Shown piece after piece: positions 14,493-14,852 of a stretch of 29,935 nucleotides of DNA. Numbering within the stretch: position 1 is the stretch's first letter; each line of letters starts with the position of its first letter. This DNA is from Clostridia bacterium. Lineage in GTDB: Bacteria; Bacillota; Clostridia; Christensenellales; UBA1242. Below the pieces are notes generated by a model. That model was not told where the DNA came from. It was given only the letters and a program-made list of their open reading frames with translations, and did no database searches. The stretch covers positions 1 through 29,935 of the forward strand of contig JAFULP010000007.1 in the NCBI GenBank assembly GCA_017473285.1, read 5' to 3'. A program made the translations under genes and the position numbers.

Positions 14493-14518
14493 TATCTAAT
14501 TTAAAATTAATATTAAAC

Positions 14519-14544
14519 AAACTAAATCGAACCCGATTTAGTTT
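14519..14544 (-). terminator. Hairpin downstream of the tRNA
   Basis: Perfect 11-bp stem aaactaaatcg/cgatttagttt, U-rich downstream on -. Confidence 0.7.
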
Positions 14545-14549
14545 AGTAG

Positions 14550-14624
14550 TGGTGCGCTTATCAGGATTCGAACCCGAACTAATGGTTCCGAAGACCATTG
14601 TGCTATCCATTACACCATAAACGC
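14550..14624 (-). tRNA. tRNA-Arg(UCG), 75 nt, CCA encoded
   Basis: Acceptor GCGTTTA/TAAGCGC, D-arm GTGT-AATGGATA-GCAC (A20, an Arg identity element), anticodon arm ATGGT-CTTCGGA-ACCAT (TCG at 14589-14591), T-arm TCGGG-TTCGAAT-CCTGA, ACCA end. Confidence 0.93.
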
Positions 14625-14630
14625 AAACAC

Positions 14631-14817
14631 AATAAATAAATCAACAGTGTTGGCAAACAATACATTGTTGATATTATCGGAAGTTGTCGTCAAGCAGCCC
14701 GAAGGGATATTTGACAGCAACTGATGGTTATACATACTTCGGAAGGCTAGATTTTAATCTAGCACACAATTTTAGTTGTGTTAAAATCAATTTTTTGATT
14801 TTACTTCCGATAGTTTA
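14631..14817 (-). ncRNA. Unidentified structured RNA or tRNA leader (four-way junction, UUCG hairpin, terminal hairpin)
   Basis: Multiple perfect stems in a non-coding stretch between a consensus promoter and the tRNA. It matches no RNA family I recognise. Confidence 0.6.
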
Positions 14818-14823
14818 TAATAT

Positions 14824-14852
14824 ATTATATCATAACTTAACAATATGTGCAA
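14824..14852 (-). promoter_or_regulatory. Sigma-A promoter driving the structured RNA and probably the tRNA
   Basis: TTGCAC-N17-TATAAT with extended -10 TG. Confidence 0.75.

Follow-up and report, generated by a model that had tools for sequence, protein, structure and literature searches.

Does a strongly folded leader in front of a transfer RNA gene set how much of the tRNA is made, or has the folded sequence come to lie there for reasons of its own? The question is raised by contig JAFULP010000007.1 of the Clostridia bacterium assembly GCA_017473285.1, of which positions 1 to 29,935 were analysed (the window). On the minus strand of the window some 190 nt of structured sequence precede a gene for tRNA-Arg. 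An original prediction, made from the sequence alone, took this stretch for an attenuator- or riboswitch-like leader, or a ~190-nt small RNA (sRNA), controlling the tRNA. That reading did not hold: one fold dominates, copies of the element are dispersed, and it is found at none of 29 orthologous loci. Positions 14816–14671 are very probably one copy of a ~146-bp gene-less, self-complementary interspersed repeat which landed in the tRNA leader, and not a regulator of the tRNA. The outcome is a deflationary one for the locus, which has neither a riboswitch nor an attenuator for the tRNA and for which annotation as a regulatory RNA is unwarranted.

Folding of the tRNA-Arg leader

The proposed switch depends on a single strand with two partners. 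In the minus-strand reading, the 5′ strand UAUCGGAAGU (14812–14803) meets a proximal partner, CUUCCGA (14745–14739), and a distal one, ACUUCCGAUA (14684–14675), which is its perfect 10-nt complement; all three lie where the original prediction had placed them. The UUCG-capped hairpin described there is likewise present (14722–14682, previously given as 14721–14683; apex CCCUUCGGG), as are the 8-bp inverted ends with TA flanks (14810–14803 and 14684–14677). The minimum free energy (MFE) fold of 14815–14626 (190 nt) has an energy of −52 kcal/mol, compared with −29.3 ± 3.6 kcal/mol for shuffled sequences (z = −6.28; 0 of 200 as stable), and joins a perfect four-way junction to two hairpins. Read 5′ to 3′, the junction (three hairpins closed by a stem of 3+7 bp) leads through 13 nt of single-stranded linker to a long hairpin, after which comes a weaker, AT-rich one.

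A cis-acting leader would require the 5′ strand to toggle between its partners and so to control read-through of the last hairpin into tRNA-Arg. Both partners do exist, the distal one as a perfect 10-bp match, and distal pairing appears in the MFE fold of two related units at other extracted loci (L-numbers), L007 and L016. At the locus itself, however, the optimum with proximal pairing lies at −52.0 kcal/mol and the best structure with forced distal pairing at −47.8, a gap of 4.2. The partition function gives the seven proximal pairs probabilities of 0.96–0.99 and the ten distal pairs 0.002–0.009. In a co-transcriptional series every transcript length tested from 14739 onward has a closed junction in its MFE fold, the proximal fold being the first to form during transcription.

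The last hairpin (14672–14640) had been called terminator-like. It is present with its UUUAUUUAUU tail, but it is weak (−7.1 kcal/mol alone), its U tract is interrupted, and it is absent from the output of the terminator scan. It is the same in the proximal and distal conformers, lies outside the repeat family and has no second copy elsewhere in the source genome, G000 (889 kb, 105 contigs; C-numbers denote contigs). No usable promoter was found between this hairpin and tRNA-Arg, as the original prediction had noted, so the tRNA must arise by read-through, which the weak hairpin allows. This dependence on read-through is a further point in favour of a switch.

The promoter upstream of the element is the tRNA's own. 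The promoter scan of the window lists an overlapping TGCACA-16-TATAAT at the same place. TTGCAC-17-TATAAT is also found upstream of tRNA-Arg at L040, a locus of a relative that lacks the unit. The unit-less tRNA-Arg region of the relative G003 has TTGCAC, 17 nt and TATAAT with a preceding TG, and the promoter there in G048 is similar. Since G003 keeps the promoter without the unit, the promoter is that of the tRNA, and insertion of the unit took place downstream of it; the insertion point, about 7 nt past the −10 box, would be at about the transcription start. A copy lying between the ancestral tRNA-Arg(TCG) promoter and its gene would form the first part of the pre-tRNA leader through passive transcription, and the RNase P cut at the tRNA 5′ end would then discard it. 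We infer that such passive transcription and removal is the most likely fate of the unit.

The comparison of related units accounts for the second partner. Distal complementarity of at least 8 nt is found in just 4 of 30 units, all four sharing the 5′ strand TATCGGAAGT, with a run of 10 or 11. The closing stem, by contrast, covaries: across units the mean longest run of the 5′ strand to its own proximal partner is 6.8, as opposed to 5.4 ± 0.3 after permutation (0 of 2000 permutations as good), whereas the distal site is almost invariant. Because the unit ends are, or were, inverted copies and the 5′ end co-evolved with its internal partner, the two-partner appearance is explained by descent. 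The apparent switch is a by-product of the anatomy of the element, whose ends TATCGGAAGT ... ACTTCCGATA are inverted and whose 5′ end also pairs internally. Given in addition that the element is missing at 29 of 29 orthologous tRNA-Arg loci and that units adjoin unrelated genes in either orientation, a cis-acting switch is scarcely credible.

Three other identities for the sequence were rejected. Searches of Rfam 15 at E values up to 10 returned nothing over 14816–14671, the tRNA being the sole match in the window, and at E up to 0.1 tRNAs alone were matched at five other unit loci. Neither ARAGORN nor the tRNA model recognised the 72-nt cloverleaf as tRNA-like. The linker and hairpin are spanned by a short reading frame, but a stop breaks it in one subtype of the hairpin (B′, below), and the substitutions fit, by inspection, paired helices.

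A family of interspersed repeats

Copies were counted with a covariance model, R1, built from the hairpin half of the element. It finds nine copies in the source genome, and nhmmer adds two that are degenerate or partial, on C9 and C86; since several copies stand at the ends of contigs, this is a minimum count. Among 64 genomes of the genus (Ca. Onthoplasma, placed by NCBI in Christensenellales), 12 carry units, in numbers of 9, 9, 7, 4, 3, 3, 2, 2, 1, 1, 1 and 1. This too is an underestimate, since an exact unit-to-unit joint in G051 (C1:138576–138601, L120), about 1.6 kb from the tRNA-Arg locus, goes unreported by the covariance model under strict filters. In a sample of 151 genomes from the order, the source genome and three others carry units and the other 147 have none: these three are a genome from the same family but another genus, with 5 copies, one from a third family, with 1, and G170, a 1.8-Mb genome of a different family, with 14, some of which stand as pairs and as a triple spaced by ~147 nt.

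A scan of species-representative genomes for the exact pattern gave 18 loci, all from metagenome-assembled genomes (MAGs) of animal and human gut origin that are named Candidatus Onthoplasma sp. or Clostridia bacterium. The joint between units is also found, in its exact form, on 28 metagenome contigs, in arrays of 2–3 and in many cases at the end of the contig; overall, head-to-tail arrays contain 2–4 units with a period of ~145–149 nt. Searches of viral contigs, phage records and plasmid records gave no match. The patchy occurrence across families, combined with high similarity and variable copy number, has the look of mobile DNA and is unlike that of a conserved regulatory RNA. The family is an interspersed gene-less repeat of some Christensenellales with small genomes. 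It appears to be undescribed, having no match in Rfam or among the phage and plasmid records, although the literature was not searched for it specifically. Among gut Christensenellales with genomes of ~1 Mb, in which mobile DNA is scarce, it has passed between genera and between families, and the many copies at contig ends indicate that MAG assemblies are fragmented by it.

Units share a common plan: AAACTAT, a closing strand, three hairpins, a second closing strand, AGT(A/T)TG(A/T)ATAACCATCAG, a long hairpin and CTTCCGATAATAT. At the RNA level this reads as AAACUAU, the four-way junction, the conserved linker, the long hairpin and the tail CUUCCGAUAAUAU. The ends of the unit can be written as AAACTATCGGAAGT... 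and ...ACTTCCGATAATAT, and the outer ends across the family as AAACTAT... and ...CCGATAATAT. In the window, the closing stem of the junction pairs 14814–14812 and 14810–14804 with 14745–14739 and 14738–14736, and encloses hairpins at 14803–14782, 14781–14764 and 14763–14746. No terminator and no conserved −35 box were found in the units, which often end 2–25 nt before a Shine–Dalgarno sequence or start directly after a −10 box. The features of the locus are collected in Table 1.

Table 1. Features of the tRNA-Arg locus and of the repeat unit within it, in window coordinates
Feature	Positions	Strand	Basis and remarks
Full unit, ~146 nt, AAACTAT... to ...CTTCCGATAATAT	14671..14816	-	BLAST, nhmmer and covariance model; family alignments; occupied-versus-empty comparison
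Module A, four-way junction	14736..14814	-	Folds; family folding; permutation test
Single-stranded conserved linker GUAUGUAUAACCA, running on into UCAG	14723..14735	-	Near-invariant columns in alignments A1 and A2
Module B, long irregular hairpin	14682..14722	-	Conserved internal loop CAAAU / GCUUG; variable apex, here CCCUUCGGG
Conserved 3′ tail ACTTCCGATAATAT	14671..14684	-	First 10 nt are an inverted copy of the 5′ strand 14812–14803
Promoter of tRNA-Arg	14824..14852	-	Sigma-70-type, TTGCAC-17 nt-TATAAT, TG extended −10; outside the repeat
Local AT-rich hairpin of the tRNA leader, UUUAUUUAUU tail	14640..14672	-	Weak terminator candidate at best; outside the repeat family
tRNA-Arg, anticodon TCG, CCA encoded	14550..14624	-	ARAGORN; Rfam tRNA 63.6 bits
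Intrinsic terminator of the tRNA transcription unit	14518..14545	-	Terminator scan: 12-pair stem, then TTTAATATTA

The two halves of the unit also occur apart. The hairpin half with its flanks recurs in the source genome on C37, C68, C64 and C101 at 79–96% identity; the junction half recurs on C37 at 87% identity, where it is joined to a different hairpin type, B′, found again on C64, C2 and C73. Elsewhere in the genome the hairpin type of the window is preceded by a different junction type, A′. This recurrence of separate halves in new combinations shows units to be mosaics of exchangeable modules. In tandem arrays (C64, L016, L027, L097, L102 and L103) two unit ends meet in a palindromic joint, ACTTCCGATA-ATATAAAC-TATCGGAAGT, with 10-bp inverted arms and a 6–8-bp AT-rich spacer, and both halves of this joint are present at the two ends of the unit in the window. 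At L027 (5500–6200) the last of four tandem units ends 26 nt before an open reading frame (ORF) of 663 aa (MGITAEVL..., with an HCGH motif), which looks like a class I aminoacyl-tRNA synthetase; a T-box is not visible there.

How units arrive at a site can be judged from orthologous loci. No unit lies within 1.5 kb of tRNA-Arg(TCG) at any of the loci from 29 other species of the genus, and the genes adjoining other copies are mutually unrelated, with no common function. The copy on C73 of the source genome lies between infC and rpmI, a spacer that is empty in eight relatives (G048, G055, G066, G058, G075, G022, G044 and G063) with flanks 81–90% identical. The insert starts in an A run which includes the infC stop codon (...GTAA^AC TATACG..., the caret marking the boundary) and ends at ...AAATTAT^AAAAGGAG, two bases ahead of the rpmI Shine–Dalgarno sequence. 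Comparison of this one occupied site with the eight empty ones shows no target duplication beyond an ambiguity of 1–3 A, and the flanks of each copy, when compared, are not identical. Conservation in the family runs from AAAC at the left to ATAATAT or AAATTAT at the right, in agreement with the ends of the C73 insert. Left flanks mostly end in TAT, and on the right 44 solitary units have A at +1, +2 and +3 in 31, 31 and 27 cases. The preferred target therefore resembles ...TAT^AAA..., as at the head-to-tail joint.

The infC–rpmI spacer provides two further observations. In G003 (C2; L124) it holds a strongly diverged member of the family, with 5′ end TAAACGGAAGC, 3′ end AACTTCCACATAT and other internal hairpins, which suggests that this one target site has been used repeatedly. 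In the source genome rpmI (L35, ...PKIKTRKAAAKRF; C73 at about 9600, L034) has CTG where the eight relatives have ATG (ATTATTCTGCCAAAA as against ATTATTATGCCAAAA), directly downstream of the repeat unit; either the start codon is non-canonical or the assembly is in error here.

The tRNA-Arg loci of relatives hold inserts of another kind. An exact copy of the 5′ part of the tRNA stands ~190–270 nt upstream of the gene at L038 (810–1002), L040 (1576–1772), L042, L044, L058 and L065. It spans the acceptor strand, the D arm and often the anticodon arm as far as GGAACC, in at least 6–8 species; at L051 and L057 it has diverged. Joined to it are ~150 nt of structured sequence, richer in GC, in which CCCAC...GTGGG hairpins are conserved and a GAACTAATGGTTC hairpin forms the end. 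The insert has no Rfam match and is absent from the source genome; it could be a miniature tRNA-targeting insert or an RNA led by a tRNA half. In L044 and L046, a GC-rich insert of ~80 nt follows the 3′ end of the intact tRNA-Arg and is itself followed by a duplicate of the tRNA 3′ end, GAATCCTGACAGGAGCGCCA, which looks like the scar of an integrase-type insertion. Additional partial copies of the tRNA 3′ half are found in other genomes.

The occupied and empty sites also bear on the fallback offered in the original prediction, a degenerate MITE (a miniature transposable element with inverted repeats). This was essentially right in kind. The proposed TA...TA limits (14812–14675) are too narrow, and there is no TA duplication; family conservation and the occupied-versus-empty comparison move the boundaries out to AAAC... 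and ...ATAATAT. A classical MITE would be an internally deleted insertion sequence (IS), mobilised by a DDE transposase which reads 8–10-bp inverted ends and duplicates TA. Such an origin fits the small, gene-less, intergenic and multi-copy nature of the units, their presence and absence between relatives, and the perfect 10-bp inverted ends of the window unit and three others (4 of 30 units), matched at 9 of 10 positions in many units of G170. Two intact rve-family (DDE) transposase ORFs, dissimilar at the DNA level, are found in the source genome (G000:C42:4054–4350 and C96:24035–24379; 301 and 358 aa). Against it stand the lack of a target-site duplication and a family conservation which reaches past TA on both sides (AAAC, ATAT). 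The 5′ and 3′ ends are not complementary in 26 of the 30 units, where the longest complementary run is at most 6. The IS copies of the source genome are without unit ends, and rve has no match at all in the carriers G003, G066 and G129. A classical MITE is therefore very unlikely.

Conservation of structure and the question of movement

Both modules of the unit show signs that their folding is maintained. For module B, aligned over 27 units, the 16 pairs are 89.8% paired, as compared with 77.0 ± 1.0% with shuffled partners and 26–50% in slid controls. Compensatory double changes are seen in 10 of the 16 pairs, and none of 500 shuffles was as good. The arms of module A are wholly different in sequence between subtypes, and MAFFT was used without structural alignment of these arms, so that conservation of the junction rests on single-sequence folds together with the permutation test of the closing stem given above. 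A closed multiloop appears in 24 of the 30 single-unit folds, and a closing stem with exactly three hairpins in 19. The helices are nearly all Watson–Crick.

Whether this structure serves RNA or DNA is less easily read from stability. The antisense strand has the lower folding energy in 56 of 58 units; this is largely compositional, as that strand is richer in G and its shuffles shift in the same direction. Excess stability over shuffles is −9.8 kcal/mol for the sense and −12.0 for the antisense strand (z of −3.5 and −3.8), and a strand assignment by thermodynamics was dropped, the z-scores being equal on both strands. Among units whose two neighbours are ORFs of 100 aa or more running in the same direction, 12 lie in sense and 5 in antisense orientation.

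A role at the RNA level would make the units a multi-copy functional family, either sRNAs of unit length released from longer transcripts or portable 5′-untranslated region (UTR) and intergenic modules affecting mRNA stability or translation, with their spread a secondary matter. It would suit helices kept by compensatory change despite differing arms, a linker and 3′ tail that are nearly invariant and single-stranded, the excess of sense copies, and the many copies placed 2–25 nt before a Shine–Dalgarno sequence or right after a −10 box. The related elements bcr1 and BOX are transcribed and show compensatory change of the same kind (PMC3184786, PMC3049150), and for this reason the idea keeps some small weight. 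On the other side, the folding has no strand asymmetry and antisense copies exist; units have neither a terminator nor a conserved −35; close relatives have from 0 to 14 copies, with orthologous sites empty; and neighbouring genes have no common function. Recognition of folded single-stranded or cruciform DNA by a protein would, moreover, lead one to expect conserved helices just as much. Taken together, an RNA function is improbable, and we prefer to see the units as an element acting at the DNA level, with folds that either are recognised in the form of DNA or are simply tolerated. Insertion at the boundaries of promoters, 5′-UTRs and stop codons could nevertheless alter the expression of neighbouring genes.

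Under the proposal of a DNA-level repeat, units would enter AT-rich T^A sites, leaving no target duplication, and would also stack head to tail, the mobilising enzyme being supplied in trans. Their mobility is suggested by the patchy distribution and by presence and absence at orthologous sites. Several points weigh against this proposal. Y1/HUH transposase, zinc-ribbon TnpB and reverse transcriptase (RVT_1) were all absent from the source genome, and PF01797 (Y1_Tnp) was absent from G000, G003, G066, G129, G170 and G132, while control genomes matched. The rve-type IS copies of the source genome have no unit ends nearby, and the end 10-mers occur in units only. Finally, the arm-by-arm compensatory change, the conserved single-stranded segments and the 12:5 sense bias also fit a role at the RNA level. 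Because plasmids and phages are lost from MAGs, the failure to find an enzyme says little for or against. A 496-aa integrase of the source genome was considered and set aside, and this too counts against the proposal: its close homologues are mostly in unit-less genomes, with no co-occurrence across the genus.

The leading candidate for the enzyme, though with the odds against it, is a Xer-type tyrosine recombinase acting on the palindromic joint. The inferred insertion breakpoint lies at the exact centre of the joint spacer, and the flanks retain similarity to the missing half of the spacer. The left arm of the joint matches the arm ACTTCCTAGAA of B. subtilis dif (PMC3025954) at 9 of 11 positions. 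A 351-aa tyrosine recombinase is encoded on C92, with best matches to XerS, XerC, XerA and XerD, all below curated cut-offs. Over its whole length the joint is identical to B. subtilis dif at 20 of 28 positions, a value equalled by about ten unrelated sites in the AT-rich source genome.

A host dif site was also sought. The best match to B. subtilis dif in the source genome (C102:1696–1723, 28 nt) is partly palindromic and identical at 22 of 28 positions, one arm resembling the unit ends; none of 63 relatives has it with 3 mismatches or fewer, and it is probably not the chromosomal dif. Searches for a joint-like site in unit-less relatives and for a Bacillus-type dif pattern in the genus gave nothing above control level. 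The flanks of the Xer-like gene on C92 hold nothing dif-like, unlike those in XerS or XerH systems.

A more specific version, which is rather doubtful, takes the units to be ~146-bp gene-less circles or members of arrays. Their joined ends would form the palindromic core for a single Xer-type recombinase of the host, inserting and excising them at loose ...TAT^AAA... sites genome-wide and not at dif, with the junction and hairpin as an accessory structure of folded DNA. If a housekeeping recombinase does move the units, the Xer-exploiting elements would be extended to miniature, multi-site forms.

Comparison with known repeats

Several known systems share features with the family. Like REP/BIME repeats and the IS200/IS605-derived PATE, the units are folded and palindromic, with compensatory change, no target duplication, arrays and a short preferred target. 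REP sequences differ, however, in being 20–40 bp long, in bearing GTAG or CGTC tags and in depending on RAYT/Y1 proteins, whereas Y1_Tnp is missing from the six carriers searched. Unlike those of REP/BIME, the arrays described here are strictly head-to-tail.

The second group comprises the elements that exploit Xer, such as the integrative mobile elements exploiting Xer (IMEX) CTX and TLC, the gonococcal island and dif modules. With these the units share inverted arms around a short spacer, which is the core geometry of tyrosine recombinases, as well as the lack of target duplication and a host-encoded Xer-like recombinase (C92). IMEX use a single chromosomal dif, in contrast to units at nine or more loci in the source genome and 14 in G170; the units, unlike IMEX, are gene-less, and a host dif resembling the joint was not found.

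BOX, RUP and SPRITE form a third group, whose distribution suggests parasitic elements with slow turnover (PMC3049150, PMC3184786). In common with pneumococcal BOX, which like RUP and SPRITE is MITE-like, the units have exchangeable sub-units, variable unit number, strong secondary structure and intergenic positions, and they would be co-transcribed with neighbouring genes, as BOX is (PMC3049150, PMC3184786). The organisation differs: in BOX a single element has the form boxA-(boxB)n-boxC, but in this family it is complete units that are stacked. The host lineage and end sequences are also different, and the units have no similarity to any Rfam family or searched record.

The bcr1 repeats of the Bacillus cereus group (group A repeats) are about 155 bp long and cruciform-like, with compensatory changes, non-conserved positions and 5-bp direct repeats (PMC3184786). 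The likeness is one of published features: both are ~150 bp, gene-less, intergenic and multi-copy, without a transposase of their own and at positions unconserved between relatives, and both have a cruciform-like fold of independent stem-loops kept by compensatory change. In contrast to bcr1, the units have no flanking duplication, and they combine a four-way junction and hairpin with head-to-tail arrays and inverted ends. Judged by analogy, it is to bcr1 and the BOX-type repeats that the family is closest in behaviour.

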